The notes beneath the pieces were generated by a model. That model was not told where the DNA came from. It did no database searches and was given only the letters and a program-made list of their open reading frames with translations. The position numbers and the translations under genes are program-made. 64,000 nt of DNA from Candidatus Collierbacteria bacterium (lineage in GTDB: Bacteria > Patescibacteriota > Microgenomatia > UBA1400 > MFAQ01), in assembly GCA_903884375.1 (NCBI GenBank), contig CAISER010000006.1, forward strand, positions 1,080 through 65,079. The letters are read 5' to 3'. Positions 2,260 to 58,811 of this stretch are shown in pieces; positions within the stretch are counted from its first letter, which is position 1, and each line of letters begins with the position of its first letter.

Positions 2260-2921
2260 TTTTCTTCGATGGTGATTGATTTAATTACCACTTTCTCAAG
2301 TGGAGCATCAGCACTATTTGTTTCGACTGTAGCGATGGAGTCAAGGACTGCTAGACTGGCTGAGTCCGAAGCATTAATGCGACCAAAGATGGTGTAGTTA
2401 GGTGGAAGAGGATAATCTTTGTGCATGATAAAAAACTGAGAACCGTTGGTGTTTGGGCCGGAATTGGCCATAGCGATCGTTCCCTTTGAATATTCTTCAG
2501 TAACCGACTCGTCGGCAAATTTATATCCCGGACCACCAGTACCGGTACCGTTTGGATCACCACCTTGAATCATGAATCCGGAAATAATACGGTGGAAAGT
2601 TAGACCGTCATAAAATGGTTTCTCGGAAACTAATTTACCTGTAAACGGATTGATTTTTGTACCCTTGGCAAGTTCAACAAAATTTCTTACTGTATTAGGA
2701 GCAATTTTAGGGAACAGCTCAACTTTCATAACACCTTTGTTGGTGGTGATGGTTGCGATAATGTTTTCGGCGAGAGGAGTTTGGCTTGGGGTTTTGATTT
2801 CCATATTGGTTGGAGAGATTTTTATATCTGTTATTTGATAATTGGGAACGGTTGGCGTTTTTTGAAAAGCACAGCCGGATAAGAAAACGGCTGAACATAA
2901 AATAAATAGTATTTTATTCAT
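2256..2921 (-). CDS. Peptidyl-prolyl cis-trans isomerase, cyclophilin type; probable lipoprotein
   Basis: Signal peptide ending LSGC (lipobox); cyclophilin core FHRIISGFMIQGGDP...GTGGPGYKF. Confidence 0.85.
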   Translation of the reverse strand: MNKILFILCSAVFLSGCAFQKTPTVPNYQITDIKISPTNMEIKTPSQTPLAENIIATITTNKGVMKVELFPKIAPNTVRNFVELAKGTKINPFTGKLVSEKPFYDGLTFHRIISGFMIQGGDPNGTGTGGPGYKFADESVTEEYSKGTIAMANSGPNTNGSQFFIMHKDYPLPPNYTIFGRINASDSASLAVLDSIATVETNSADAPLEKVVIKSITIEEK

Positions 2922-2958
2922 CGTTTTATTATATATGGTGTCATGATAACATGGTTGT

Positions 2959-3261
2959 ATGCAGATGCCTGTTGTGGTCGGAATCGTAGTAGCGATTATA
3001 TTTTTAGTTGCTTTTTCGGAATGGTTTTACCATTTGGTGTCAGGATGGGGTGGATATGTGTTGGACGATGTATATTTTCGGTATCGAATCGTGGGGGTTT
3101 CTTTGTTGTCGATAATGGTAATGAGTGGAACTTTTTATAGCATGGCTCTAATAAACGAATGTCCTAATGAAGTTCGTGAAGGATTGTTCGCCAAATTAAA
3201 TTGCGAGGAGTATTCGAAAATTACGGTAGGAGCTGAAAAGTTATTTTTTCCTGGTAAATAA
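2959..3261 (+). CDS. Hypothetical small membrane protein
   Basis: 100-aa ORF with two hydrophobic segments in an otherwise gene-free 320-bp gap; no recognisable family. Confidence 0.25.
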   Translation: MQMPVVVGIVVAIIFLVAFSEWFYHLVSGWGGYVLDDVYFRYRIVGVSLLSIMVMSGTFYSMALINECPNEVREGLFAKLNCEEYSKITVGAEKLFFPGK

Positions 3262-11737: not shown

Positions 11738-11811
11738 GGTCCCGTCGTCTAGTGGTCTAGGACATTTGGTTCTCATCCAAAAGATCGCGGGTTCGACTCC
11801 CGCCGGGATCA
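11738..11811 (+). tRNA. tRNA-Glu, anticodon CUC
   Basis: Manual cloverleaf: acceptor GGTCCCG/CGGGATC (one G-U pair), anticodon stem TTTGG/CCAAA, loop TTCTCAT, T-arm GCGGGTTCGACTCCCGC; CCA not encoded. Confidence 0.85.
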
Positions 11812-11820
11812 CAAATGAAA

Positions 11821-27501: not shown

Positions 27502-27576
27502 TGCCGGATCGTCTAATGGTAGGACGCCACCCTCTGGAGGTGGTTATTCTAGGTTCGAGTCCTAGTCCGGCAACCA
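27502..27576 (+). tRNA. tRNA-Gln, anticodon CUG, CCA encoded
   Basis: Manual cloverleaf: U1-A72 acceptor TGCCGGA/TCCGGCA, anticodon stem CCACC/GGTGG, loop CTCTGGA, T-arm CTAGGTTCGAGTCCTAG, short variable loop, terminal ACCA. Confidence 0.8.
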
Positions 27577-27689
27577 AGTTGGACGCTATCAGACCGTGAT
27601 GCCTAAAATCGGTTGATGCGTCCCACAAAAGCCCATTTTGTTTTTGGAAGTCTCGGACCGTACGCTCGTTGTCCAGCTATTTCTTTATT
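27568..27689. repeat. 122-bp direct repeat, copy 1; begins in the tRNA-Gln 3' end and abuts the stop of the metallophosphoesterase gene
   Basis: Identical to 34714-34835 over about 58 nt and about 43 nt (1 mismatch), separated by a 21-nt non-identical core (27626-27646). Confidence 0.85.
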
Positions 27690-28725
27690 ATTGAAGTAAA
27701 TATGTATCGGCGATATTTTCTGTGACTTTCCCGAGTACTGTCTTCACAAATTCTACCTTGGCATTATTAGTGGAGACTGTGACTCTCAAATATCCAGAGC
27801 CACCAATTATATTGCCGCTTGTATATCCATATTCACCTTTTGTGTTAACTATATCGCCTGGGTGACTCGGTTGAGGAAGAGTTTGATAAACGACACCATC
27901 TAATTCTTGTTTGGCATAGAAATGATCATGACCTTTGAATACTGCATTTACTTTGTTATCGACTAATAACTGATGGATTGGTTTTGACCAGCCTGATCTG
28001 TTGATTGTAAATCCATAACTACCATCGAGATTATTACCACCCCATTCATATAGTTTGGCAAATTCGACTCCACCTCTACCCTGGCTATCCCCACCAACAA
28101 GTTGATGAATAAATACAAATTTATATTTACTATTACTTTTTTCTAATGTGTTTTTGAGCCAATCATATTGTGTCTTTCCCAGCGTCCATTTCCATCCATA
28201 TGTGCCAGGCTTAGTGGTAGTGAAACTATATGGATCAAGAATGATAAATAAGGCATCGCTTTTGGTAAATGAATAATAATTTTTGTCAAACTGGCTTGGA
28301 AAATACTGGAGGCGTTGGGAGCGATTATTTGTTTCCCAACCGGCCTCGCCATCATGATTGCCACTTGCTAGATACAGGGGAATTGATGAACCCAATAGAT
28401 CGAAATATTTTTTCATTAGTTGATAACGATTAGCAAAGCTTGTACTATTTTTGGCTGGCTGTTTGTCGAGCATAAACGTATCACCAAGATCAATGAGAAA
28501 CGCTGGCTTGTCAGCGACTATGTTTTTCAATGTTTGGGAATAAACTGCCTCACTTGATTGCTCATCCATGTGGGGGTCAGCTTCAATGGCAAAACTAAAA
28601 GATTCTCCAGAACTAGCAGTTCGTAAACTATTGGGTATTTCGATAATATTTTTACTAAATACCCAAAATAATGAAATTCCGAGAATACCAAGAATTATTA
28701 ATAGAATGGTTTTATTTGACTTCAT
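27688..28725 (-). CDS. Secreted metallophosphoesterase (calcineurin-like), paralog B
   Basis: Signal peptide; motifs ADPHMD, GDTF, GNHD, GHDHFY; tandem paralog of the upstream gene. Confidence 0.75.
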   Translation of the reverse strand: MKSNKTILLIILGILGISLFWVFSKNIIEIPNSLRTASSGESFSFAIEADPHMDEQSSEAVYSQTLKNIVADKPAFLIDLGDTFMLDKQPAKNSTSFANRYQLMKKYFDLLGSSIPLYLASGNHDGEAGWETNNRSQRLQYFPSQFDKNYYSFTKSDALFIILDPYSFTTTKPGTYGWKWTLGKTQYDWLKNTLEKSNSKYKFVFIHQLVGGDSQGRGGVEFAKLYEWGGNNLDGSYGFTINRSGWSKPIHQLLVDNKVNAVFKGHDHFYAKQELDGVVYQTLPQPSHPGDIVNTKGEYGYTSGNIIGGSGYLRVTVSTNNAKVEFVKTVLGKVTENIADTYLLQ

Positions 28726-29788
28726 AAGTATAGATTGATTGGCCGTTGTTGTTTTGGCCGGATTTAATATAGTCTACCTTGACCGAGTCAGGGGAAACTG
28801 TCACATCTAAGAACCCGGAGTTTGGAAGAGTATCACCTGCTTTATAGGCATCTTTATTGAATGCGGTGAAAGTATCATCGGCTGGATTGGGAACTTCTTG
28901 ATAGATAACTCCATCGAGTTCTTGCTTTGCAAAAAGATGATCATGACCTTGAAAAAAGATAGTAACGCCGTTTTTGACCATCAATTGATGAATTGGTGTT
29001 CCCCAGCCTGGTCTCATTTTGTCGAATTCATATGTTCCGTTTGGACTATATCCTCCCCACTCGTAAAGCTTAGCCATCTCGACTCCACCACGACCAGTAC
29101 CGAGAACATGGTGAGTAAAAACAAACTTGTATTTTGCTTTGCTTTCTTCCAAGGTTTTTTTGAACCATTGATACTGTGTCTCTCCCAAGGTATTGTTCCA
29201 GAGATTTTGTTGTTTCTTCTCATTTTTTGCTCCAGCGACATTGTCCGCAGCAGTTTCCGTGTGCCAATAGTAATCAATTACGACAAATAAAGCATCTCCG
29301 TGAGTAAATGAATAATAACCGTTTTCTGCGCCAGGGGAGGTGAAGTATTTGGCTCGTGCATTTTGGGCAAGTATGGCCGGATTGGTATTTGTTCCATCGA
29401 GTAAATATTTGGCTTCTTGTTCATGATTGCCATTTACCAGATAAATTGGAATGGTGAGGGCACTTAAATAATTCTTTTGGTTGAGATATACCGAATCAAT
29501 GGCGCTTTGAGTGACATTGTTGCCTTCAATTTCTTTTTCGATGCTAAAGTCATCACCTAGTAGAAAGTAAAAATCGAGATTTGCTTTGTTTACATTTTGG
29601 AGGGTTGTTTTGTAAAGATCAGAATTAAACATTTTCCCAGGTCTTTCCGGGTGTGAATCTCCTTGAACTCCAAAAGAAAAGGTATCTCCGACAAGAAAAA
29701 AACTATTTCGATTTGCAATCCAATAATATGAAACTAAACATACTCCAACTAGTAATAAAAAAATGAGTATTATTGACTTATTTTTCAT
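28712..29788 (-). CDS. Secreted metallophosphoesterase (calcineurin-like), paralog A
   Basis: Signal peptide; motifs GDSHPE, LGDDF, GNHE, GHDHLF; overlaps the downstream paralog by 14 nt. Confidence 0.75.
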   Translation of the reverse strand: MKNKSIILIFLLLVGVCLVSYYWIANRNSFFLVGDTFSFGVQGDSHPERPGKMFNSDLYKTTLQNVNKANLDFYFLLGDDFSIEKEIEGNNVTQSAIDSVYLNQKNYLSALTIPIYLVNGNHEQEAKYLLDGTNTNPAILAQNARAKYFTSPGAENGYYSFTHGDALFVVIDYYWHTETAADNVAGAKNEKKQQNLWNNTLGETQYQWFKKTLEESKAKYKFVFTHHVLGTGRGGVEMAKLYEWGGYSPNGTYEFDKMRPGWGTPIHQLMVKNGVTIFFQGHDHLFAKQELDGVIYQEVPNPADDTFTAFNKDAYKAGDTLPNSGFLDVTVSPDSVKVDYIKSGQNNNGQSIYTYEVK

Positions 29789-30360
29789 TGAGCCAGATTG
29801 TTACAAGCAGTTCGACAATACTGATAGTCTCCACAAGCTAATCCAGTCTCGGCTGACTCGCAACACTGTTTGCAGGTATTTTGATCACCGCTGGCTGTGC
29901 AGGTAGAATAATTTCCATCGCGACCAAGTTTTGAAGAAATTTCAAATGTTTTTATGACTGTATTTTTTGTGTAGTCATAGGTAGCAGCAAAATCTCGACA
30001 GGCCTTGCGGACAGAGTCATCGGCAGCCAAACAATCACAACAATCTTTACTTGATCCTAGATCTTTCGTATTTTCGATACATTGACTATAAGTGGAATAT
30101 GTCACTTGAGTACCTGTTTGGCCGGTTGGTTTTGCTTGACCGTTAGTCTTTGGCTGTGCTGCCTGACTACCACCCTTGCTCTTTCCTTGACTGTTTGTTG
30201 GTGTTACTCCTTGGGTTACATTATTGTTATTCAAAACAGGAGCTGTCGAAGTTTTTTTTGTAAGTAGATTTCTTCCATACAAATCCCATGTTGCGCCTCC
30301 GAGAACAGCAACGAAGATAATACTTAAGATGCCAATAATTATTTTTTCTTTTTTGTTCAT
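29785..30360 (-). CDS. Hypothetical membrane-anchored Cys-rich protein
   Basis: 191 aa; N-terminal TM, polar low-complexity linker, about 14 Cys in the C-terminal 110 aa (CCDC, CKQCC); no family recognised. Confidence 0.45.
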   Translation of the reverse strand: MNKKEKIIIGILSIIFVAVLGGATWDLYGRNLLTKKTSTAPVLNNNNVTQGVTPTNSQGKSKGGSQAAQPKTNGQAKPTGQTGTQVTYSTYSQCIENTKDLGSSKDCCDCLAADDSVRKACRDFAATYDYTKNTVIKTFEISSKLGRDGNYSTCTASGDQNTCKQCCESAETGLACGDYQYCRTACNNLAQ

Positions 30361-30375
30361 TTTATGTATATTTAA

Positions 30376-31962
30376 TTATTGAAAAAGGAAGTCCGTATTG
30401 GCGACTGAAGGCATATTAATTTTTTCTGAGTAGAGGTATGCCGAAGTATCAGGACAAGTATAGCCATCAAGATTCTTAAGTTTTGTGAGAGCATCCTTTT
30501 GAGCTGTAGTTAAAGATTTGCCAACTTGGGCAAAAGCGGTGGCGTAGTAATAGGATATTTCACCATCCAGCTGACCATATTCTCTAGAGAGAGCAATTAC
30601 TTTAGCTTCATCAATTACGCTTGTTGTTAAGATTTTTCGGAGTTCTGTAGAGATGGCTCTTCTTTTCTCGACGATTCCAGTGATTGCGTTTTTTTGAGTA
30701 GCAACAAGGTTAGTAATAATTGGTTTTTGAGTTGCACTTAAGGCACTGATAAAGGCTTGACCTTGATCTCCTGTAATTGATTCATCAATCGTATAGCCGG
30801 CATTGCCTATGGCTGGAGCATCTTTGATATAAAAACCACCAAAGTAATCGGCTTGTCTCTCCGGACAAAAATAAGTATCAGCTTCAACATTGCCGGCGTA
30901 CCAGCCAAACATTTCACTTGCATAAGTCATCATTAAGACAGATTCGTCTCGAGTTAAGTTCACTTTATCTACTTGATCAGGAAGTATCGCCCATGAGGCA
31001 AAACCACCTTTAACCATAGTGTCGAAGTATGTTTTTTGTTGAGTTGTAAATGACTTGATTATTTCTCCAAATAGCTGTGCTCTTTGAAGACTAATCTTGG
31101 CATCTATTTCATATATGTCTGCGGAGTATTGCATAATGGCAGACTTGCTTAAACCGGTTGTTCCTGTTGGAATACTACCCGTAAGCTGGCGTCTAAAAGC
31201 AACCATCAGAGGAAATCTTTTGTAAGCGAATTCATTGACTAAGCTTGTTTGTGATTTGGCAAGTGCAGTCATCTTTGCCTTCTGGGTAGCGTTTAGGGTA
31301 TAAAGCACATTATTAGCCGAGTTGGTTACGAAATCCGTGTCATGACCTTTTCCGTTTGCTGTCAAATCTCTTAAATATTGAAAACCAAAATAATCCGAAA
31401 CCTTGCCTGGAGGTAGGAATGAGTCTGAACAAGTGTTGCCTGTTAAAAATCCAAGGCCATCAAAAGCTAGTGTATTTAGCTGAGCCTGATCGGAGATAGC
31501 TTGATCGATACTATAGCCACTTCCTGCGTTCCCCGTAGGATTCTGACTTTTTACCTGACCACTTCCGGTGGCTTGTGGACCACCATTAGAGTCATTTTTA
31601 CAGGCTAGTACACCAGGTTTGTCGTCACATGTTCCTTTGGCAATAATTTCCCTGTCTGTGAATTCACACGCATCTCCAATTGCCTTACCTGTGCAAGCAA
31701 CTATTGCGGCCTCTGGTGGCATATTGCCGGAATTATTTTCTGATGTAATTTGGTTTTTTCTCGATAGATACCAATAACCTCCTGTAATAATAATTGCCGT
31801 GACTAGTATGCCGGAAATTAAATATATTGGTTTGATGGATATTTTTTTTGCTAGATTGACTGTCTTACTAACAAAGGTTGTTTTTTGAGTATTTTGATCC
31901 TTTGGAATATCCGTATTAACTAATGGTTTATTAGGTTCAACAGGAATTATATTTTCGTTCAT
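30376..31962 (-). CDS. Hypothetical large membrane-anchored extracytoplasmic protein
   Basis: 528 aa; N-terminal TM, Cys-containing region CTGKAIGDACEF...TCDDKPGVLACKND; no family recognised. Confidence 0.45.
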   Translation of the reverse strand: MNENIIPVEPNKPLVNTDIPKDQNTQKTTFVSKTVNLAKKISIKPIYLISGILVTAIIITGGYWYLSRKNQITSENNSGNMPPEAAIVACTGKAIGDACEFTDREIIAKGTCDDKPGVLACKNDSNGGPQATGSGQVKSQNPTGNAGSGYSIDQAISDQAQLNTLAFDGLGFLTGNTCSDSFLPPGKVSDYFGFQYLRDLTANGKGHDTDFVTNSANNVLYTLNATQKAKMTALAKSQTSLVNEFAYKRFPLMVAFRRQLTGSIPTGTTGLSKSAIMQYSADIYEIDAKISLQRAQLFGEIIKSFTTQQKTYFDTMVKGGFASWAILPDQVDKVNLTRDESVLMMTYASEMFGWYAGNVEADTYFCPERQADYFGGFYIKDAPAIGNAGYTIDESITGDQGQAFISALSATQKPIITNLVATQKNAITGIVEKRRAISTELRKILTTSVIDEAKVIALSREYGQLDGEISYYYATAFAQVGKSLTTAQKDALTKLKNLDGYTCPDTSAYLYSEKINMPSVANTDFLFQ

Positions 31963-32006
31963 ATTACTAGATTATCAAATGATAACTTGGAAAATGCTTA
32001 GAATAT

Positions 32007-33092
32007 TTAAGATCTTTTGAGGGGCAAATTGATAACAAAAGTAGTGCCCATATTTATTGTACTTTCAACCAGGATTTGACCATGATGCTGTTTAATTATT
32101 TCATTTACGATTGAAAGACCAAGACCGTAGCCTTTTGTAATTGTCTTTGATCGCGAATTATCAGCGCGATAAAAACGCTCAAATATTTTATTAAAATCGT
32201 TTTTTTCTATTCCGATACCAGTGTCTTTAATGGTAAATGTTAAATGATTATTATTTGACGTTAAGTTTATATATATTTTCCCTTTGTCTTTGTTGTACTT
32301 AATTGAATTTTCAAGTAGATTATCAACCATCTCTCTTAAGGCTTCTTCGTTTCCTACTAATACAACTTGTTCCAGCTGATGTTTAATTGAAATCTTTTTC
32401 TTGTCAGCTTGTTTTGTAAACCGAGATACACTATCTAAAATGATTTTGTCTAACCTTACCTCTTGAAAAGAATTTCTATCGATATCATTACTAAATTTTT
32501 CGACCAGTAACAAACTGTTTGCTAATTTTTCCAATGTGTTCACGTCTTCCAAATTACTTTCAAGAAGATCCTTAATTTTTTTGTAAGGAATTGGACCCAT
32601 CATCAAGGTGACCTCTAAGGCGGTTTTGAGATTGGCGAGAGGAGTACGTAATTCATGAGAAGCACTAGCAACAAAAATTTTCTGGTCTTCTAGCATCTTT
32701 TCAATTGGCTTTAATGTCTTTCCTGCTAGAAGATATGATGCACTCGCCGAAACACCGAGAACAATCAGATTGGCAAGGAAAAGAGATAAAAGCAACTGGT
32801 TTCGGGAGATTATGTAATCTTCTCTAATATTATCGTCCAGTGGTGGATCAACTAGCTCTCTTTGAAGATCTTTCGGGTCCGGTAATGGTTTTGGCAACTC
32901 AATCCTTAGTCTGTCGGCGACTATTTTTTGTTGTTCTCTTCTCGCCCCTCTTAGTAACTCAGAATTTAAAGAAGTATAGACAACAATGCTAAATATGAAA
33001 GCGACAATCATAAGTATCACGAGATACCATGCTGTTAGTTGGACTCTAGCTCTGGTGAAATTATTTTTCATTGTTATCAACTTTATATCCAA
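32007..33092 (-). CDS. Sensor histidine kinase (HisKA/HATPase_c), island copy
   Basis: Two TM helices, H-box SHELRTPL, N/G boxes (DTGIGI, GYGLGLSIV); paralog of the 42241-43254 gene. Confidence 0.85.
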   Translation of the reverse strand: MDIKLITMKNNFTRARVQLTAWYLVILMIVAFIFSIVVYTSLNSELLRGARREQQKIVADRLRIELPKPLPDPKDLQRELVDPPLDDNIREDYIISRNQLLLSLFLANLIVLGVSASASYLLAGKTLKPIEKMLEDQKIFVASASHELRTPLANLKTALEVTLMMGPIPYKKIKDLLESNLEDVNTLEKLANSLLLVEKFSNDIDRNSFQEVRLDKIILDSVSRFTKQADKKKISIKHQLEQVVLVGNEEALREMVDNLLENSIKYNKDKGKIYINLTSNNNHLTFTIKDTGIGIEKNDFNKIFERFYRADNSRSKTITKGYGLGLSIVNEIIKQHHGQILVESTINMGTTFVINLPLKRS

Positions 33093-33747
33093 AACCTCTG
33101 ATCGTTTGTATTATTGATTTTGATTTTGGAAATGGTTTGTCAATTTTTTCTCGAAGATAATTTATGTATACTTCAACAGTGTTTGGGAGAACATCATCTT
33201 CATAGCTCCATACATTTTGTATTATTTCGTCTTTTGATTTCACTTTACCTTTGTGTTTTAATAAAAACTCCAACAACGAATACTCCCTTTTTGAGAGAGT
33301 AATCTTTTTTTTGTTTCTACTTACTTCGTGTCTAATTGTGTCAACAATCAAATTACTTTGTTGAAGCACTCCTTCTGTTTGAGTTAGAGGTCTTCGTGAC
33401 AACGCCCTAATTCTAGCTACTAGCTCAGCAAAAACAAATGGTTTGACAAGATAGTCATCTGCGCCCGCGTTTAAACACTCCACCTTGTCACCTGTTGCAC
33501 CTTTGGCTGTTAGTATCAGAATTGGAGTGTGTATATGTTCTTTATCTCGTAAAATATGAATTATTTCAATTCCTGATAGTTTTGGAAGCATGAGATCTAT
33601 TACCAATACATCGTATTTTTCTGTAGTAGCAAGATCCAAACCAGCTTCCCCATCAAACGCCAAGTCGACAGCCCAAGACTCTATCTCGAGACCTGTTTTG
33701 ATAAACTGGGCAATTTTATGCTCGTCTTCAATGACTAATACCCTCAT
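33061..33747 (-). CDS. OmpR-family response regulator, island copy
   Basis: Receiver domain (DD..D phosphoacceptor, K) plus winged-helix trans_reg_C; highly similar to the 43256-43930 regulator. Confidence 0.9.
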   Translation of the reverse strand: MRVLVIEDEHKIAQFIKTGLEIESWAVDLAFDGEAGLDLATTEKYDVLVIDLMLPKLSGIEIIHILRDKEHIHTPILILTAKGATGDKVECLNAGADDYLVKPFVFAELVARIRALSRRPLTQTEGVLQQSNLIVDTIRHEVSRNKKKITLSKREYSLLEFLLKHKGKVKSKDEIIQNVWSYEDDVLPNTVEVYINYLREKIDKPFPKSKSIIQTIRGFGYKVDNNEK

Positions 33748-33783
33748 TATTGATATTGTATAGCTTCAAAGCTTAAGTATTGC

Positions 33784-34044
33784 TTAAAAAGCAAAATCTT
33801 TCTCTTCAATATTATCTTTACTACCAATATTTATCTCTTGGTCTAACTCCTTCAATTCATTATCTAAGTCGTTGTCTGCATTTGTGACAATACTATTGGT
33901 TTCTTCAGTAGTTTTTTCAGGACTGGATATATCCGATTGAGTTTCCACATTCTTAACTTTTCCTGACTCAATATTTGGTTTGATAAATATATATCCTGAG
34001 ATGAACAACCCTAAAATTATTAAAATAATTAGTATTTTATTCAT
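33784..34044 (-). CDS. Hypothetical small secreted acidic protein
   Basis: 86 aa; signal/TM followed by a D/E/N-rich tail. Confidence 0.35.
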   Translation of the reverse strand: MNKILIILIILGLFISGYIFIKPNIESGKVKNVETQSDISSPEKTTEETNSIVTNADNDLDNELKELDQEINIGSKDNIEEKDFAF

Positions 34045-34051
34045 ATTTTTG

Positions 34052-34576
34052 TTATTTTGTGCTTTTAAATTGGTCTCTTAGACTGGCAATGTCTGGCTTG
34101 ACCGTTGCCTTAACAAAGTTCCAAAAATCAGTATTGGCGCTGTTCAGTACTTCTCTTTGAGCTTTCATTTCAGTCACTGAAGCTTTGTAAGCTCCGTCTG
34201 AGTCTCCACACGCTAGATCTTTAGTAGCAGAAACTTTTGTTTTTAATGATGAGTATGCAGATTGCCATGCGTTCATCTTCTCTGTTAGAGATGTGAGATC
34301 TGCCTTGAGTTTTTCTGAACCGAGACCCTTATCTTCTACTTTGGTGATTATCTCGTTTAAACGGTCAATAACTGATTGGTGTCTTTTTCCAATTGACTCG
34401 TTTGTGGTGAGCTTTGTGTAGAGATCGTTTACTTTTGAGGTAATTCGAGTGCATCGAACCTCCTTCGTTTCGCTATTCACACCTCCTAGATTTTCAGCAA
34501 AGACAGAAGTAGCTGAAAGGTTTAATAGTAACCCGCCTGCGATAACTGCAGAAGTGATAATAGTTTTTTTGTTCAT
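34052..34576 (-). CDS. Hypothetical secreted coiled-coil protein; start placed at the internal Met preceding the signal peptide
   Basis: ORF-track start (34723) would place 49 aa upstream of a clear signal peptide (MNKKTIITSAVIAGGLLL) and inside repeat copy 2; Met-50 at 34576 is favoured. Confidence 0.4.
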   Translation of the reverse strand: MNKKTIITSAVIAGGLLLNLSATSVFAENLGGVNSETKEVRCTRITSKVNDLYTKLTTNESIGKRHQSVIDRLNEIITKVEDKGLGSEKLKADLTSLTEKMNAWQSAYSSLKTKVSATKDLACGDSDGAYKASVTEMKAQREVLNSANTDFWNFVKATVKPDIASLRDQFKSTK

Positions 34577-34713
34577 ATTCTTTCTTTTGATAATTATTAA
34601 CAATATGGTTGATAATAAAGCCTGTTGGCTTAGAAGATGCTTGGAATTTTTCCGACTGTTTTTCGGCTCTGTCGGCTTCTGTAGAAAATGAGGCTGTGGT
34701 GAGAATCCTTGCT

Positions 34714-34835
34714 CGGCAACCAAGTTGGACGCTATCAGACCGTGATGCCTAAAATCGGTTGATGCGTCCCAGAGAAGCTCATTTCGTAATTGGAAGTCTC
34801 GGACCGTACGCTCGTTGTTCAGCTATTTCTTTATT
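34714..34835. repeat. 122-bp direct repeat, copy 2; carries a degenerate tRNA-Gln T-arm remnant at its left end and overlaps the 3' end of the serine recombinase gene
   Basis: See copy 1; the 20 nt upstream (GAATCCTTGCTCGGCAACCA) match the tRNA T-arm/acceptor 16/20. Confidence 0.85.
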
Positions 34836-36136
34836 TTGGAGGAGACAAACTTTCTGTTGTGGAGATAAAGTTGGTAGTTAAAAAGTTGTATTAGTTGACG
34901 TTTTCTCACAGGATCTCCACTCTTGAGTACATGCCTCGCATAATCCCTGACGTCCATTATTTTCTCATCTGGGTCAATGTCTTGTCTTAACAGGACATCA
35001 TCTCTAACCTTTCGGTATTCATCCATTCCTTCGCGGATTTCTTTTGACAAGTTTAAGATTTGTGGGTGGGCTATGTAGGTAAAATTGATATACCTTAATA
35101 GCTCCATCGACAAACCTTCTTCGCTGATGTAATCTTCTCGGCAATCGTAATCTACCTGTCGACTGCAATGATAGTAAATGTGATATTTATCCTCTCGATA
35201 TTTTCTTTTTCTTAACTTGTCTTCCCCAATTACATTCGAGCCACAGTTGGCACATTTGAACAAGCCTTTGAAGATGAACATTTTACTTCCCCATTTTGAT
35301 TTTGCCGGAACTATCAGATGTTTTTGGACAATGTCGAACACTTCTTTGGTTATTAATGGTTGATAGGAACCCTTGTACCAACCACCACTTCCGACAGGAT
35401 ACTCAAATTCCCCATAGTAGAAAGGATTTTTTAACATTAGGTAGACTTGACTAAGGCTAACTGCTGAACCAGATTTATTTGTAAATCCTTTTTCTTCCAA
35501 CCATTTTTTAAGTTTCCGTCCTGAAGTTCCTTCAGTAGCAACCTTTTGAAACGCCTCGGCAACGAGTGGAGCTCTATCAGGATCGATAATAATATCCTTC
35601 GTTCCGTTAAAGGCTCTATTGAAATACCCAAGAGGTGCCATCCCTGGTCGAAATCCCATCTCACATTTTGCTCGAATACCTCTTTTGACGTTTAGCCCTT
35701 TTTGATCGTTTTCCAATTTTGCTTGAGAACAAAGGATCATCAACAGAAACTTCTCGTTCGGATTATTCGAAAACATTTGGGAGAATGTCTTAATTTGAAC
35801 AAGTTTCCCTTGATCCATCAAATCTACTATTATTCCCAAGTCTCCTGCATTACGACTTAATCTGTCTGGAGCCCAAGTCAGTATCCCTGTGAACTTCCCG
35901 GCACCGATATCATCCAGTAGCCCCATGAATACCGGCCTCTTACTTGATATTTTGGCTGAATGGCTTTCTCTGCGAATTTCTTTTACAAATAGTCCCTCTC
36001 TTTTGGCAATCTCACCCATTTCTTTAACCTGAGATTCAATTGACATGGCTTGTCTTTCATCGTCTTCACTCGACTTTCTTGCGTAAAGGCAGTAAACAAT
36101 TTCTTTTTGTGGTTCTATTGCGGTTCTCTGTTCCAT
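34823..36136 (-). CDS. Large serine recombinase (resolvase/invertase catalytic domain plus recombinase and zinc-ribbon domains)
   Basis: N-terminal YARKSSEDDERQAMSIESQ catalytic serine motif; C-terminal Cys cluster (CANCGS...CSRQVDYDC). Confidence 0.8.
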   Translation of the reverse strand: MEQRTAIEPQKEIVYCLYARKSSEDDERQAMSIESQVKEMGEIAKREGLFVKEIRRESHSAKISSKRPVFMGLLDDIGAGKFTGILTWAPDRLSRNAGDLGIIVDLMDQGKLVQIKTFSQMFSNNPNEKFLLMILCSQAKLENDQKGLNVKRGIRAKCEMGFRPGMAPLGYFNRAFNGTKDIIIDPDRAPLVAEAFQKVATEGTSGRKLKKWLEEKGFTNKSGSAVSLSQVYLMLKNPFYYGEFEYPVGSGGWYKGSYQPLITKEVFDIVQKHLIVPAKSKWGSKMFIFKGLFKCANCGSNVIGEDKLRKRKYREDKYHIYYHCSRQVDYDCREDYISEEGLSMELLRYINFTYIAHPQILNLSKEIREGMDEYRKVRDDVLLRQDIDPDEKIMDVRDYARHVLKSGDPVRKRQLIQLFNYQLYLHNRKFVSSKIKK

Positions 36137-36204
36137 CTATTGGTATCCATTAGTATGGTCAAGGATACCGCAAGGTTTGTGTAAGTCTAGTCCAAAGATT
36201 AAAT

Positions 36205-36732
36205 TTAGTTAGTTGGATTTTCTCGCGAATCTTCGGATACACGCTCTATAAACTGCCTTAGTCTCTCTAATTCGGCATCCATCTCTTCGGAATCTTTATT
36301 CTTTTTGTATCTACCGATAGAGTTAATAAGAGTTCCCGCTACGCCAATTGGTATTAAACCCTTAAAAACAAGCAATAAAACCGACGCAATCATGCTTTGT
36401 TTGTTTATTCCTTTAATACTTTGCTCGATTCCCGCCTGTTCGTTTGGTGATAATAATATTCGCCTTTGGGTATAGCTTGAGTGATGATTGTTGAGCCAAT
36501 AATAGATAGAGGTAGGATGCCTATCTTTTATTAAACCTATTAGCTGTGACTCAGCCAAATCATTTATAAAATCGACTCCGTCCTTTAAGGCATTATTAGT
36601 TTTCTCCTTAAAGTCTGCATCATCCTCTCGCCAACGATAGTAGCTGGCACGGCTTATTCCTGCTTTTTGGCATGCCACCTGTACTATTGGAGTGGTCTTT
36701 AATTGTTCAACTATACTATCCCTGTCTTTCAT
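36205..36732 (-). CDS. HTH-domain protein resembling a phage terminase small subunit or transposase-type HTH
   Basis: VACQKAGISRASYYRWREDDADF helix-turn-helix near the N-terminus; C-terminal TM/coiled coil; overlaps the upstream gene by 17 nt. Confidence 0.45.
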   Translation of the reverse strand: MKDRDSIVEQLKTTPIVQVACQKAGISRASYYRWREDDADFKEKTNNALKDGVDFINDLAESQLIGLIKDRHPTSIYYWLNNHHSSYTQRRILLSPNEQAGIEQSIKGINKQSMIASVLLLVFKGLIPIGVAGTLINSIGRYKKNKDSEEMDAELERLRQFIERVSEDSRENPTN

Positions 36733-38065
36733 GGAGTATTCCTTTTAATCCGGTAAGGTTTTCCCAACGTTTTTTGATTACTTCTGCATATATGGGTGAT
36801 TTTTCCATGATGTAGCATCTTCGTTTCATTTTGGTGGCTGCAATTAAGGTTGATCCACTACCTCCAAAGGGTTCGATGATGAGATCACCTCGTTTTGTAA
36901 GGACTTTGATATATGGAATCAATATCTCCGTGGGCTTTGTACCAAATACAACTCCTTGTCCGGAATGTTTCTCATCCGAAGCGTTGAACTCGATGAAATC
37001 TGTAGGTTGGGTTTTCTTACCTTTCTCGTAGCCTTCCCACTGTGGTTTGCCAGAGATGGCGTACAGGGCTGTTTCGTATTCTTGTTGAAGTCCATCTTGT
37101 TCCTCCTCATTGTTGTACTCAATATCAGAATCTTGTGATGCCCCAACCATGGCAATGTCGTGTTTGGAAAAGAATTTGTATTTGGCAGAGAAACCTTGGT
37201 GTCTGTTGGGTAAATGCCAGACGATCATGTTTTTCACCTTCCAATGTTTTTCCATCTCACCCCAGATGGTTCTTAAGTTCTTCCAGTTTTCGTAAACAAT
37301 GATGGAAAAGTGTTCTTTTTGAATCTGTGAGACGTTTTCCATCCATTTTTCCGTGAAGTCGGGCGGAAGACTTTCGGTTTCCAGGTATCTTCTGTCCCTT
37401 TTGGCTCCGAATCCTGTAACTGCTTTTCCGTGCTTGGTTTTTCCATTTAAATAATCCAAAATATATGGCGGATCGGTGAAACACATATCCGCTTTTTCTC
37501 CATCCATCATTTTTTGGATATCCTCAATTGCAGTCGAGTCGCCACACATAAGTCGACTTCCATTAAGCTCGTATATTTCTCCTTTCTTGATATTAATTTC
37601 CGTAATATCTAACTTCTTGAGTTCTTTCTGAAGGTCAAACTGTTCGGGAATGTCCACGACATCAAATATCTGGTCCAGTTCTTCGCTTGAAAATCCAATA
37701 TTGTTTAGGATTGACGGATCATACGTCGCCAACATATCCCAATCCCATTCGCCGATATTTTTATTTAATCGAAGATTTAGCTCTTTCTCAACCTCAAGAT
37801 CGGGAATATTGACATAAACTGCCGGTATAGTTTCGATTCCAAGCTCTTTTGCGATCTCTAGTCGGAAATGCCCGCCAATGACAATGTTTTTCCTTTCCGG
37901 AGCTTCATTGACAATAATGGGATCAACCAGACCAAATTTTGTAATACTTTCTTTAAGCTGGTCTGCCGCGTTTTTATCGTGCTTCCTGGGATTATAAACC
38001 GCAGGGTTTAAATCGCTTACTTTGATATATGTGACGGAAATATCCCGTCGGAGTTGTTTTTGCAT
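36716..38065 (-). CDS. ParB-like nuclease domain fused to an N6/N4 DNA methyltransferase (orphan MTase)
   Basis: N-terminal ParB/Srx motif (IVIGGHFRLEIAKELG); C-terminal MTase with FTDPPY catalytic motif and SAM-binding FGGSGS. Confidence 0.8.
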   Translation of the reverse strand: MQKQLRRDISVTYIKVSDLNPAVYNPRKHDKNAADQLKESITKFGLVDPIIVNEAPERKNIVIGGHFRLEIAKELGIETIPAVYVNIPDLEVEKELNLRLNKNIGEWDWDMLATYDPSILNNIGFSSEELDQIFDVVDIPEQFDLQKELKKLDITEINIKKGEIYELNGSRLMCGDSTAIEDIQKMMDGEKADMCFTDPPYILDYLNGKTKHGKAVTGFGAKRDRRYLETESLPPDFTEKWMENVSQIQKEHFSIIVYENWKNLRTIWGEMEKHWKVKNMIVWHLPNRHQGFSAKYKFFSKHDIAMVGASQDSDIEYNNEEEQDGLQQEYETALYAISGKPQWEGYEKGKKTQPTDFIEFNASDEKHSGQGVVFGTKPTEILIPYIKVLTKRGDLIIEPFGGSGSTLIAATKMKRRCYIMEKSPIYAEVIKKRWENLTGLKGILHERQG

Positions 38066-38432
38066 ATGCTTTACGTGGCTATTGCCACAAAAACTATGTT
38101 AATAATCAACTCCTAGACTGAGATATTTTTCGTCTAGGCCACATAGGTGATGTTTATCACCATTTGCCTTTCGGTAGCTCTTGCGAGCCTACTGTTATGC
38201 TCGGAATTATGTTGACCATACCCTGACACTTCAGTAATTTTCCTATCCCACTACTTTAATTATATAGATTTTTGTTGAATTTTTCTTCCAACCAAAATAG
38301 AACATTATATTCTTCAGTTTATCTGCAATAGTAGACTCGTCACGTTTTCCTGCAATCGTTAATACTTCTTCCTTATCAGATTTTGACAACTGCTTTCTTT
38401 TTTATTCCCAATATTTTATTAACTGACACGGT

Positions 38433-42240: not shown

Positions 42241-43254
42241 CTAGCTGAAATGTTGGGGTAGAGTAACAGTAAATGTGCTTCCGTGTCCGAAACGACTTTT
42301 TACTTTTATTTCTCCATGGTGCTTCTCAACAATCATCTTAGCTATGGAAAGGCCTAGGCCAAAACCTGATGCTTTTGATTTTGAACGAGAGGGGTCAGCT
42401 CGATAGAAACGATCAAAGATGAAGGGTAGATCTTTTTGTCTGATTCCTTGACCATGATCGGTGACCGAGAAAGATAATGTCTTATTTGTCTTGGCAGTTT
42501 TAATTAATATTGTTTTATTAGACGAGCTGTATTTGATTGCATTCTCGAGAAGAATAGTGATAAGACTTTCAATTTTTTCTTTATCTCCATGAAAATTTAT
42601 ATTTATGAGGTTTTTTTTGATGATTATTTTTTTACTGTTTGCTTGGGGAAGAATCTTTCTGACTGCTGATTCCATAACATTTAATATCGAAATGTTTTCA
42701 ATGATGGAGCTTCCATTTTGTTCTTTGTTTTTAGACAAATTGATTAACGACTCTGATAAATACTGAAGTCGATCAACATCGGCAATGTTATCTTTGATGA
42801 GCTTTTTAGCATCCACAAGAGTAAGTTTTTTGTCCATTAGGGCAACTTCCATGGCAGATTTAAGGGAAGTTATGGGTGTTTTTAGCTCATGCGATGAATC
42901 TGAAATAAAGCGGTCTTGATCTTCTATCATTTCTTTAATTGGGCGAAGTGTTTTTCCGGCAAGAAAATATCCAAAACCACCGGAAAATATTATGATTATG
43001 CTATTTATAATTAATATGTTTGAAAGAAGATGTTTTTGAGTTTCTGCCACGAGATCGGGGTCGGTAAGGAATGATTGCGAAACGAATAAAGTATCTGGGC
43101 GATACTGTCTTTCGAATCTGGTTCTTTGGGCTCTGGCAAATCTTTTAACTTCAATCATTTGAACATTGAATATCACAGCACTGAAGGTGAAACTTATTAA
43201 CATAATGATGAGTAGATACCATACGGTTAGTTTTAGCCGAGCTTTTTCAAACAT
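42241..43254 (-). CDS. Sensor histidine kinase, chromosomal copy
   Basis: Two TM helices, H-box SHELKTPI, HATPase_c G-boxes (DHGQGI, GFGLGLSIA). Confidence 0.85.
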   Translation of the reverse strand: MFEKARLKLTVWYLLIIMLISFTFSAVIFNVQMIEVKRFARAQRTRFERQYRPDTLFVSQSFLTDPDLVAETQKHLLSNILIINSIIIIFSGGFGYFLAGKTLRPIKEMIEDQDRFISDSSHELKTPITSLKSAMEVALMDKKLTLVDAKKLIKDNIADVDRLQYLSESLINLSKNKEQNGSSIIENISILNVMESAVRKILPQANSKKIIIKKNLININFHGDKEKIESLITILLENAIKYSSSNKTILIKTAKTNKTLSFSVTDHGQGIRQKDLPFIFDRFYRADPSRSKSKASGFGLGLSIAKMIVEKHHGEIKVKSRFGHGSTFTVTLPQHFS

Positions 43255-43255
43255 A

Positions 43256-43930
43256 TTAGTTTTCTATTTTGTAGCCGAAACCTCTAATGGTTTTAAGTAG
43301 AAGTTTTTTGTTTTTAAACGGTGTCTCGATTTTTTGTCTAAGTTTTCTGATATAGACTTCTACCGTATTTGGAAGAACATCATCGTCATAGTTCCATACA
43401 TGACTTATGATTTGTTCTTTGGAAATGATTTTTCCAGAATGACGCATAAGATACTCGAGAAGTGAATATTCTTTACCGGAAAGGGAGATTTCTCTACCCC
43501 CCCTTTCAACTAAATAGCTTATTGTATCTAGTTCGAGGTCACCCGTTTTAAGTACTGGGTTTTGACTTCCTGAAGGGCGGCGTATCAGAGCACGGACTCT
43601 AGCCAGTAGTTCCTCAAAAGAAAATGGCTTGGTGAGATAGTCATCGGCTCCTGAATTTAAACCCAGTATTTTATCTTCCGTCTGACTTTTGGCAGTAAGA
43701 ACTAAAATCGGGGTGTGAATACTATCTTGACGAAGTTTTTTACAGATATTAATGCCGTCGATTCCGGGAAGCATAAGATCAAGAATAAGACAATCGTATT
43801 CTTCGGTGGTGGCGAGATCTAAACCGTCACGTCCGTCAAAGGCTAGGTCTACAGCATATTTTTCAAGCTCGAGACCCTTTTTTATAGTTGTGCCTATTCG
43901 ATGTTCGTCTTCAACCACTAATATTCTCAT
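43256..43930 (-). CDS. OmpR-family response regulator, chromosomal copy
   Basis: Receiver plus winged helix; 2-nt gap to the kinase gene. Confidence 0.9.
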   Translation of the reverse strand: MRILVVEDEHRIGTTIKKGLELEKYAVDLAFDGRDGLDLATTEEYDCLILDLMLPGIDGINICKKLRQDSIHTPILVLTAKSQTEDKILGLNSGADDYLTKPFSFEELLARVRALIRRPSGSQNPVLKTGDLELDTISYLVERGGREISLSGKEYSLLEYLMRHSGKIISKEQIISHVWNYDDDVLPNTVEVYIRKLRQKIETPFKNKKLLLKTIRGFGYKIEN

Positions 43931-58490: not shown

Positions 58491-58811
58491 CTCCCGGGTG
58501 CTAGTGAGGAACGCCCTTTCGTTCTCAAAGACGAAGGGGAGGAAAGTCCGGACAGCTAAAAGATAGGGTGACCGAGGAAACTCGGTTCTTCTCGAGGTGA
58601 CTCGAGAGGCGCGATAGGGCCACAGAGACGAACAAAGGTGAAACGCTCCAACGTTAGTTGGAGATTCTTTCAAAGAAACTTGAAGGAAGTGGTAACCCGC
58701 CCCGCTGCAATCGACGAATTGGGATTAAGGTATCTTTTCCGTCCCAGAAGTCTCGAGCATTAGATAGATGTTCCTCCTTGACAGAATCCGGCTTACAATG
58801 GCCCGGGGGTC
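58491..58811 (+). ncRNA. rnpB: RNase P RNA (bacterial type A-like, compact)
   Basis: P4 strands GAGGAAAGUCCGGAC and ACAGAAUCCGGCUUAC, a P3 hairpin, a GGUGAAA-containing region, UAGAUAGAUG...GACAGAA 3' domain, and P1 pairing CUCCCGGGU/GCCCGGGGG; ends approximate to about 10 nt. Confidence 0.8.

Follow-up and report, generated by a model that had tools for sequence, protein, structure and literature searches.

Organization of the tRNA-Gln locus

The window analysed here, a stretch of 64,000 nt from a Candidatus Collierbacteria contig, carries a tRNA-Gln(CTG) gene (27502–27576, plus strand; ARAGORN and Rfam) that is followed by a 7-kb unit, by a second copy of the sequence found at the tRNA 3′ end, and by the gene of a large serine recombinase (LSR). 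Every substantial open reading frame (ORF) from 27688 to 38065 lies on the minus strand, as the original prediction for this locus had said of the genes between and after the repeats. The tRNA gene adjoins MgsA and makes up the B side of the left junction. This is its ancestral host position, and PDA-MgsA-...-tRNA-Gln synteny is common to the window and the related contig L086 (contigs compared with the window bear labels between L001 and L108; L089 is JAMDBJ010000004.1 and L108 is Logan SRR30681617_27103). In the following, E1 denotes the unit spanning 27690–34697 and E2 the LSR-bearing unit that begins at 34823.

A repeat search of the window returned a single long direct repeat, 27552–27694 against 34698–34840, which extends over 143 nt at 90% identity. 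BLASTN narrows it to 122 nt (27568–27689 against 34714–34835) at 94.3% identity, in agreement with the 122-bp direct repeat starting in the tRNA-Gln 3′ end that had been predicted; there are two copies, and all copy counts given here are within the window unless stated otherwise. The first 57 nt (27569–27625, starting with GGCAACCA, the last tRNA bases) are identical between the copies, and this block occurs twice where none is expected in shuffles. Seven of the 9 differences between the copies fall inside one 22-nt patch. Only 9 nt of the repeat belong to the tRNA; the other 113 of 122 nt are non-tRNA sequence, made up of a trailer of about 100 nt and the last codons of an LSR gene.

Copy 1 (27568–27689, plus strand) consists of the last 9 tRNA nt, trailer 1 (27577–27676) and 13 nt (27677–27689) that correspond to the last LSR codons and stop. 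In copy 2 (34714–34835, plus strand), trailer 2 (34723–34822) lies between a pseudo-tRNA fragment and the LSR stop codon and forms the junction of unit E2. The LSR ORF (34823–36136, minus strand) overlaps this copy for 13 nt, exactly as predicted, and with the neighbouring gene called at 174 amino acids (aa) the copy sits in a 246-nt intergenic gap. Beyond the extent of the trailer in L087, the two window copies share these 13 nt (CTATTTCTTTATT), and because they are LSR codons and a stop, copy 1 reads as an orphan LSR-family junction from which the recombinase gene has been removed.

The original prediction had proposed a BLASTN check of the repeat, and had named a dispersed intergenic repeat unrelated to tRNA-Gln as the result that would speak against integration. 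The repeat has two copies in 64 kb, and a 22-mer taken from it matched three JGI metagenome contigs, each directly behind a tRNA-Gln(CTG) gene. A dispersed intergenic repeat, whether a repetitive extragenic palindrome (REP) or similar to a miniature inverted-repeat transposable element (MITE), is ruled out by the two window copies and by the position of all three metagenome matches behind tRNA-Gln.

The recombinase family and its trailer

The LSR, an intact protein of 437 aa, contains the Pfam domains Resolvase (PF00239, 4.7e-18), Recombinase (PF07508, 3.2e-13) and Zn_ribbon_recom (PF13408, 3.9e-07) and matches a PHROG integrase at 3e-61. The motif YARKS(22), of the form YxRxS, aligns with YLRRS of SPbeta SprA/YokA (PDB 9dxh), the best solved relative. 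A resolvase domain with its nucleophilic serine is present together with the recombinase domain and the zinc ribbon, and the protein is predicted to be a large serine recombinase with attP × attB activity, in keeping with its earlier naming as a serine recombinase. All 8000 scored candidate homologues have E ≤ 1e-10; the best 120 are 60–80% identical, and the named sources are Patescibacteria lineages.

Six independent loci carry an LSR that is 70–80% identical within the family, namely the window, L089, L090/91, L092, L101 and L102/103. At all six the LSR stop codon lies about 95–110 nt from a convergent tRNA-Gln gene (CTG or TTG) or pseudo-fragment, and a homologous trailer fills the gap. 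A convergent tRNA-Gln is present in L090/L091, L092, L101 and L102/L103, and a pseudo-tRNA 3′ fragment takes its place in L089. Among loci with LSRs at least 70% identical, the recombinase is thus next to the junction at a conserved target in 6/6, and in L093–L100, where the LSR is at most 67% identical, neither trailer nor tRNA-Gln is found. Trailer 1 of the window is homologous to the trailers of L086, L087, L089, L090, L092, L101 and L102.

The identity of the trailer follows the LSR and not the tRNA. Between L090 and L092 the trailer is 88% and the LSR 90% identical, the tRNA 73%, and the anticodons differ; between the window and L087 the figures are 90% for the trailer and 84% for the tRNA. 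The first 55 trailer nt are identical in five copies whose tRNAs differ, one of which (L086) has an MgsA gene only 69% identical at the nucleotide level. Because the order tRNA-Gln/trailer/LSR is family-wide and trailer identity tracks the LSR, the two repeat copies are best taken as junctions of this LSR family. The 122-bp repeat would then represent two homologous element-borne arms of one family and no target duplication, with the trailer as a putative element arm (P′) next to the LSR gene. The premise of the original prediction, that LSRs create no long target duplications, is correct and agrees with a repeat made of two arms. No long repeat is present at the far end of the simple loci, which is what LSR chemistry would lead one to expect. 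Crossover probably takes place at or beside the tRNA 3′ end, and short dyads are seen at the tRNA/trailer boundary, namely CCAA-G-TTGG (window) and CAA-GA-TTG (L090).

The trailer has no Rfam match even at E ≤ 10, and RNAalifold across the two trailer types gives no shared structure (consensus energy −0.97 kcal/mol); with neither a match nor a conserved consensus structure, it does not have the marks of a structured non-coding RNA. In individual folds, a hairpin followed by a U-rich stretch is stable in the window type, L089 and L092 and not clear in L101 and L102. Trailer 1 contains a terminator-like hairpin at 27581–27623, and the trailer probably acts as a terminator where the tRNA and LSR genes converge. 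The variable patch (27626–27647, plus strand; counterpart in copy 2 at 34772–34793) was delimited by alignments and folds between two invariant blocks. Its sequence is different in each of the four window-type trailers, in contrast to the neighbouring 55 nt with 100% identity, and it probably represents a U-rich, loosely constrained tail after the hairpin.

Trailers are also found without an LSR. Relative to the LSR stop they break at +13 nt in window copy 1 (27577–27689), at −20 nt in L086/L088 and at 0 nt in L087. Unrelated cargo comes next to the trailers of L086 (7825–7905, minus strand) and L087 (478–577, plus strand); behind the former lie genes for rhodanese, methyltransferases, YibE/F and a P-type ATPase. 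In L090, a 43-aa piece of a second LSR (2863–2991, plus strand; 58% identical, zinc-ribbon region) is located 7 kb upstream of the intact LSR, which points to recurrent turnover of LSR elements at this tRNA-Gln locus as well. Metal or redox cargo occupies L089 1–9900, L090 3000–9900 and L101 2400–3800 in place of the methylase and terminase module described below; the genes include P-type ATPase, ArsR, HMA, YHS, thioredoxin/DsbD, pyridine-nucleotide disulphide oxidoreductase and BlaI/BlaR-like genes. A search of IMG/VR with three DNA patterns for free phage or attP forms returned the L092 contig only.

The tRNA fragment in front of copy 2

Immediately before trailer 2 lies a pseudo-tRNA-Gln 3′ fragment (34698–34722, plus strand) that retains the T-arm and the 3′ strand of the acceptor stem only. 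The 16/20 match to tRNA-Gln noted earlier upstream of copy 2 is correct and extends to 19/25 against the tRNA-Gln of the window and to 21/25 against the tRNA-Gln allele of L087. Infernal calls no tRNA at this position, and no further tRNA fragment of this kind is found elsewhere in the window or in shuffles. The acceptor strand differs from that of the host tRNA (CTCGG against TCCGG). The order pseudo-tRNA/trailer/LSR, as at window copy 2, is also present in L089.

Two explanations of the fragment were tried and rejected. A whole tRNA that has decayed in place does not fit, as the 50 nt upstream are not significantly tRNA-like. Nor is the fragment a P arm common to the family, as it is absent upstream of the LSR in L090, L092, L101 and L102, where about 3.8–10 kb were read.

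Unit E2 and its far end

Upstream of the LSR gene, unit E2 encodes on the minus strand a helix-turn-helix (HTH) protein of 175 aa resembling a terminase small subunit (TerS; 36205–36732; weak Pfam and PHROG matches) and, as its last gene, a fusion of ParB-N with an N6_N4 DNA methyltransferase (MT; 36716–38065; Pfam, and PHROG at 1e-79). The ParB-methylase is 65–73% identical to the first gene of a ParB-MT/TerS/TerL/LSR module in L092–L094, L098, L099 and L102, and residues 2–100 of the TerS-like protein share 36–49% aa identity with proteins encoded directly after a ParB-methylase in 10 other loci. The genes for ParB-type methylase(s), HTH protein, a protein of about 500 aa and LSR follow in this order in seven loci besides the window; three further loci (L096, L098 and L102) have other genes between HTH and LSR. 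The ~500-aa protein is the terminase large subunit (TerL; PHROG 2e-83 for L092 and 2e-46 for L102). The association of a TerS-like HTH protein and a ParB-methyltransferase fusion with an LSR, which the original prediction had pointed out, is therefore a real and recurrent mobile module.

The window E2 lacks TerL, and no remnant of it was found. A fused TerL remnant in the C-terminus of the 175-aa protein was considered and rejected, since this part has no similarity to TerL. E2 (34823 to about 38250) is thus a reduced, phage-derived form of the ParB-MT/TerS/TerL/LSR module from which TerL has been lost; its tetranucleotide profile is not deviant. In an IMG/VR relative (L098 2516–8916, minus strand), an Eco57I/TaqI-type methylase and a PLD-SNF2 helicase replace TerL between HTH and LSR, which looks like a restriction or defence insert.

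The right boundary of E2 was placed by comparison with L108, which is 81% identical to the window at the nucleotide level over RR2, HK2, HlyD, ABC, MacB and DUF5666 and continues with a hydrolase gene and a YceG/MltG gene. Homology with this host DNA ends at 38309 and is degenerate to near 38254, so that the boundary lies at about 38250–38309 and not at 38432, the limit given in the original prediction. A 5′ fragment of host mltG/yceG (38309–38400, minus strand) survives in the right flank as a pseudogene, of which only ...KSDKEEVLTIAGK..DKLKN is kept. In L108 a hydrolase gene separates DUF5666 from mltG; the window lacks it.

The non-coding end of E2 with the host junction (38066–38309) has no recognisable attR, and when compared with the tRNA, the pseudo-tRNA and the far end of L102 it gave no significant similarity. 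A CAACCAA at 38289–38295 may be decayed mltG. Short matches in the relatives were rejected as att or common cores: the L102 9-mer GTTATCCTG (L102 position 2123, in the predicted gap) is at chance level, about 2 matches per 10 kb being expected, the L092 10-mer falls within the module and hence is a chance match, and the L090 9-mer is part of a gene. The far end of E2 reads as a deletion junction that also removed most of mltG. Because no attR is recognisable and the far end is deleted into mltG, the array is probably grounded and immobile.

Unit E1

Unit E1 holds a six-gene operon on the minus strand that comprises, from the tRNA side, the metallophosphoesterases MPE1 (27688–28725) and MPE2 (28712–29788), unk191 (29785–30360), unk528 (30376–31962), a histidine kinase (HK; 32007–33092) and an OmpR-type regulator (RR; 33061–33747), with domains assigned by Pfam. 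At its right end follow, on the same strand, two small membrane or secreted proteins, one of 86 aa (33784–34044; ORFs and gene calls) and one a coiled-coil protein of 174 aa (cc174; 34052–34576). The latter had been taken as a 223-aa ORF; gene calls of public assemblies give it 174 aa. For both small proteins the PHROG matches are only weak (2e-4), and their genes are absent from the operon homologues in L105–L107. N-terminal signal or membrane segments occur in six E1 proteins, namely both phosphoesterases, unk191, unk528 and the two small proteins. No mobility gene is detected by Pfam among the E1 ORFs.

The operon is found in L105 at 54–77% aa identity, and in L106/L107 with a more divergent two-component pair (32–43% aa). 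No trailer and no tRNA-Gln accompany the homologues in L105 and L106/L107; the L105 operon ends opposite tRNA-Asn. The guanine-cytosine (GC) content of E1, 0.372, equals that of the host. Its tetranucleotide distance from the remainder of the window, 0.164, exceeds those of all host windows of the same size (mean 0.113, maximum 0.1639).

The original prediction had described a duplicated two-component system inside the element. Only one pair is present there (32007–33747); the second pair, at 42241–43930, is a paralogue (60% and 37% aa identity) in host DNA outside the element, and what is duplicated inside are the metallophosphoesterases. MPE1 and MPE2 (27688–29788) are tandem paralogues with 39% aa identity and a 14-nt overlap, and since they are kept as a pair in L105–L107, the duplication is old. 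The unk528 protein is a membrane-anchored protein of 528 aa with a weak LTXXQ/Spy-like tail. Its family (also L105 10001–11623 and L106 10001–11503; 60–77% aa) is strikingly conserved and present in many Patescibacteria lineages, Chloroflexi and one archaeal metagenome-assembled genome (MAG), and wherever the context was read the neighbourhood is RR-HK-unk528-unk191-MPE-MPE.

Occurrence of the locus in other assemblies

The exact window proteins (MgsA, MPE1, cc174, LSR and the DUF5666 protein were looked up) are on contigs of about 8 ENA assemblies, and the gene order is that of the window in all. These contigs show the integrated arrangement only, with no tyrosine integrase, empty site or circle junction. 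Relatives of MgsA, the LSR and the DUF5666 protein come from MAGs mostly labelled Patescibacteria (Microgenomates, Levyibacteriota, Woesebacteria, Collierbacteria, Paceibacteria), and some MgsA matches bear Acidobacteriota or proteobacterial labels. MgsA proved unsuitable as an anchor for empty sites, as tRNA-Gln synteny is not conserved among the 80 loci compared and the closest relative is 77% identical in aa. Elsewhere in the window are a bacterial class A RNase P RNA (58494–58810, plus strand; 113.5 bits, above the Rfam gathering threshold) and a tRNA-Glu(CTC) at 11738–11812.

Discussion

On balance we lean, without great confidence, towards reading the locus as a tandem array of two degraded and apparently fixed integrative elements that belong to a single LSR family and lie at the tRNA-Gln 3′ end. 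The order observed is junction 1, E1 without a recombinase, junction 2, and E2 with the LSR, as an array grown by accretion would have it. A terminal junction or an excision product is not seen; the far end is deleted into mltG, and only the integrated arrangement occurs in the roughly 8 assemblies. Of the composite proposed originally, the two tandem units hold, one without a recombinase and one with an LSR at tRNA-Gln; delivery of a cargo island by a tyrosine integrase is not supported.

In this family, the LSR gene would lie at one end of the element and be followed by the arm of about 100 nt, and integration would put the arm directly behind the tRNA. Copy 2 would be the junction of E2, formed on the 25-nt tRNA-Gln 3′ fragment, and copy 1 the junction of E1 on the functional tRNA-Gln, with the LSR of E1 deleted to its last 13 nt. 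The order tRNA-Gln/trailer/LSR in L090, L092, L101 and L102 would correspond to the state without E1. Removal of E1 would be possible only through homologous recombination between the two copies, and this would restore tRNA-Gln/trailer/LSR.

The array could have arisen by three routes. An earlier E1 may have offered at its distal end an attB-like site, consisting of the 25-nt tRNA end and its flank, into which E2 integrated. Alternatively, an E1 circle carrying the pseudo-tRNA and a trailer may have recombined, by RecA or by the LSR, with the resident junction. It is also conceivable that two deletions took place in a tandem pair. Under each of these routes E1 would derive from the same LSR family and lack the recombinase, and the order and mechanism of the insertions suggested here should be taken as tentative.

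Several points weigh against the two-element array. The array does not account for the pseudo-tRNA, which is no generic P arm and whose acceptor strand agrees with that of a foreign tRNA-Gln allele. The genes of E1 hold nothing mobile, so that E1 may be resident DNA. Canonical LSRs do not recombine attL-type sites, and an insertion of E1 catalysed by the LSR therefore needs an additional assumption. The clustering of break points of LSR-less trailers at the LSR stop is not expected of random deletions, and the array does not account for the hypervariable 22-nt patch either. For E2 no attR or P arm was identified, no empty tRNA-Gln site was recovered from a close relative, and the order of the family rests on only six loci.

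The original prediction had the 7-kb unit delivered as an island by a tyrosine integrase that has since been lost, so that the repeat would be a duplicated att core and the LSR module an unrelated neighbour. A 25-nt tRNA 3′ fragment at the distal end of the unit is indeed the classic footprint of such islands, and E1 has no recombinase of its own. The repeat of a tyrosine island would however be a segment of the tRNA 3′ end, whereas here 9 tRNA nt and a degenerate 16 nt upstream are joined to 113 nt of LSR-family trailer and LSR codons. The fragment and the host tRNA differ in their acceptor strands, the order pseudo-tRNA/trailer/LSR occurs in L089 too, and no tyrosine integrase or remnant is present among the ORFs from 27688 to 38065 (Pfam). 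Given the LSR-family nature of the repeat and the failure to find such a gene or any trace of it, we give this origin only a slim chance. Resident host DNA is a better candidate, although we still judge it unlikely. Here the 7 kb would have lain between two tRNA-Gln genes that were each hit independently by an LSR element; of the first element only the trailer would have escaped deletion, and the second tRNA would have decayed. The genes of E1 are ordinary secreted and regulatory genes of the type seen in the Candidate Phyla Radiation (CPR), their GC content is that of the host, the operon stands in apparently chromosomal DNA in other genomes, and the LSR family uses both tRNA-Gln(CTG) and tRNA-Gln(TTG). 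Against this, the second tRNA can be recognised over its last 25 nt only, its 5′ two-thirds having no significant similarity, which is unlike uniform decay; the tetranucleotide profile of E1 lies beyond every host window; and a surplus tRNA-Gln would be needed in a small genome.

The trailer itself might belong to the host, as an RNA or terminator that extends the tRNA-Gln 3′ end and is strongly conserved; LSR elements and other islands would insert at its distal end, and copy 2 would have arisen by segmental duplication of the tRNA end. Trailers without an LSR do occur behind tRNA-Gln in L086/L088 and L087, a stable hairpin is present, and the break points cluster at the distal 31-nt block, the most conserved part in the family. 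But the trailer is more conserved than its tRNA and tracks the LSR across hosts and two isoacceptor genes; the more distant tRNA-Gln loci L007 and L040 have no trailer; no Rfam family or conserved consensus structure supports an RNA; and copy 1 contains LSR codons. We find this explanation rather improbable. The same break points could be accounted for if the LSR and trailer formed a fixed capture platform at tRNA-Gln, integron-like in function, in which the LSR gene stays by the tRNA and recombinase-less circles with a pseudo-tRNA end and a trailer are swapped in between by recombination of like sites. Such a platform would also account for the orphan trailers with cargo in L086 and L087 and for the order pseudo-tRNA/trailer/LSR in the window and L089, yet it seems to us a long shot. 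An assembly mis-join at the repeat, the true state being tRNA/trailer/LSR with a separate 7-kb circle or locus, is scarcely credible. Contigs L083 and L104 of other assemblies do stop inside repeat copies, which is due to the 57-nt exact repeat. This is the longest exact stretch that the copies share, they differ at 9 positions, and independent contigs from other samples and assemblers span each copy with the flanks of the window at 99.96–100% identity: L001 covers MgsA/tRNA/trailer 1/MPE1, and L082 and L084 (k=141) cover cc174/pseudo-tRNA/trailer 2/LSR. Because both copies are spanned in this way, mis-assembly is unlikely.

If the two-element array holds, the window locus is a decayed, fixed example and unremarkable alone. 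Descriptions of mobile elements integrated in Patescibacteria (CPR) are poor, and here a large conserved LSR family is associated with a compact target, the tRNA-Gln 3′ end, and with a conserved element arm. The family shows how cargo operons are placed in very small genomes, with metal and redox resistance in L089, L090 and L101 and a two-component/phosphoesterase operon in the window. If confirmed, the att sites could serve for site-specific integration in CPR bacteria, in which genetic manipulation is difficult. Our searches of the accessible literature brought up no LSR family in CPR bacteria that is linked to the 3′ end of a tRNA and has a conserved ~100-nt arm.

Comparison with known systems

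In staphylococci, the cassette chromosome SCCmec and pseudo-SCC elements that lack ccr genes are integrated at the rlmH 3′ end by the large serine recombinases CcrAB or CcrC. Composite SCC resembles the present locus in that the target of a large serine recombinase is the 3′ end of a housekeeping gene that is conserved, and in that tandem units parted by direct-repeat junctions carry cargo operons, with a recombinase-less unit beside a recombinase unit. The target differs (a tRNA here, rlmH there), as does the junction, which is about 122 nt and mostly element-borne here as opposed to a 15–18-bp integration-site sequence. The present locus also has no third junction, its recombinase unit is phage-derived (ParB-MT/TerS/TerL), and the host belongs to the CPR. 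The enterococcal cassette chromosome is similar to SCC (PMC6222049).

Accretion of a cis-mobilizable element (CIME) with an integrative and conjugative element (ICE), as for ICESt1/ICESt3 of Streptococcus thermophilus, likewise places an att-flanked, integrase-less element in tandem with an integrase-bearing one at a single chromosomal site. The enzyme there is a tyrosine integrase with short att cores, whereas a serine recombinase is found here, and excision of the units is probably impossible here. Islands that tyrosine integrases insert at tRNA genes share with the window the tRNA 3′ end as target, a 3′ tRNA fragment at the distal end of the first unit and a hotspot with tandem insertions; they differ from it since no tyrosine integrase is present here and the repeat is mostly non-tRNA, LSR-family sequence.

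The temperate phages with serine integrases (SPbeta SprA, A118, phiC31, Bxb1, TP901-1) have the same domain architecture of the recombinase, and the integrase gene adjoins the att site. To our knowledge, those phage integrases typically target protein-coding genes. The present family differs by its target at the tRNA-Gln 3′ end and by the conserved ~100-nt arm that replaces the sequence downstream of the tRNA. For comparison with the simple loci, which lack a long far-end repeat, the common core in a mycobacterial serine-integrase prophage is reported to be 8 bp (PMC9303363). Finally, grounded (defective) prophages (PMC6379469) resemble the array at tRNA-Gln in that a remnant packaging module is kept with an integrase, one att side is deleted and the arrangement is fixed in the population; the present locus adds a tandem second unit and an orphan junction.

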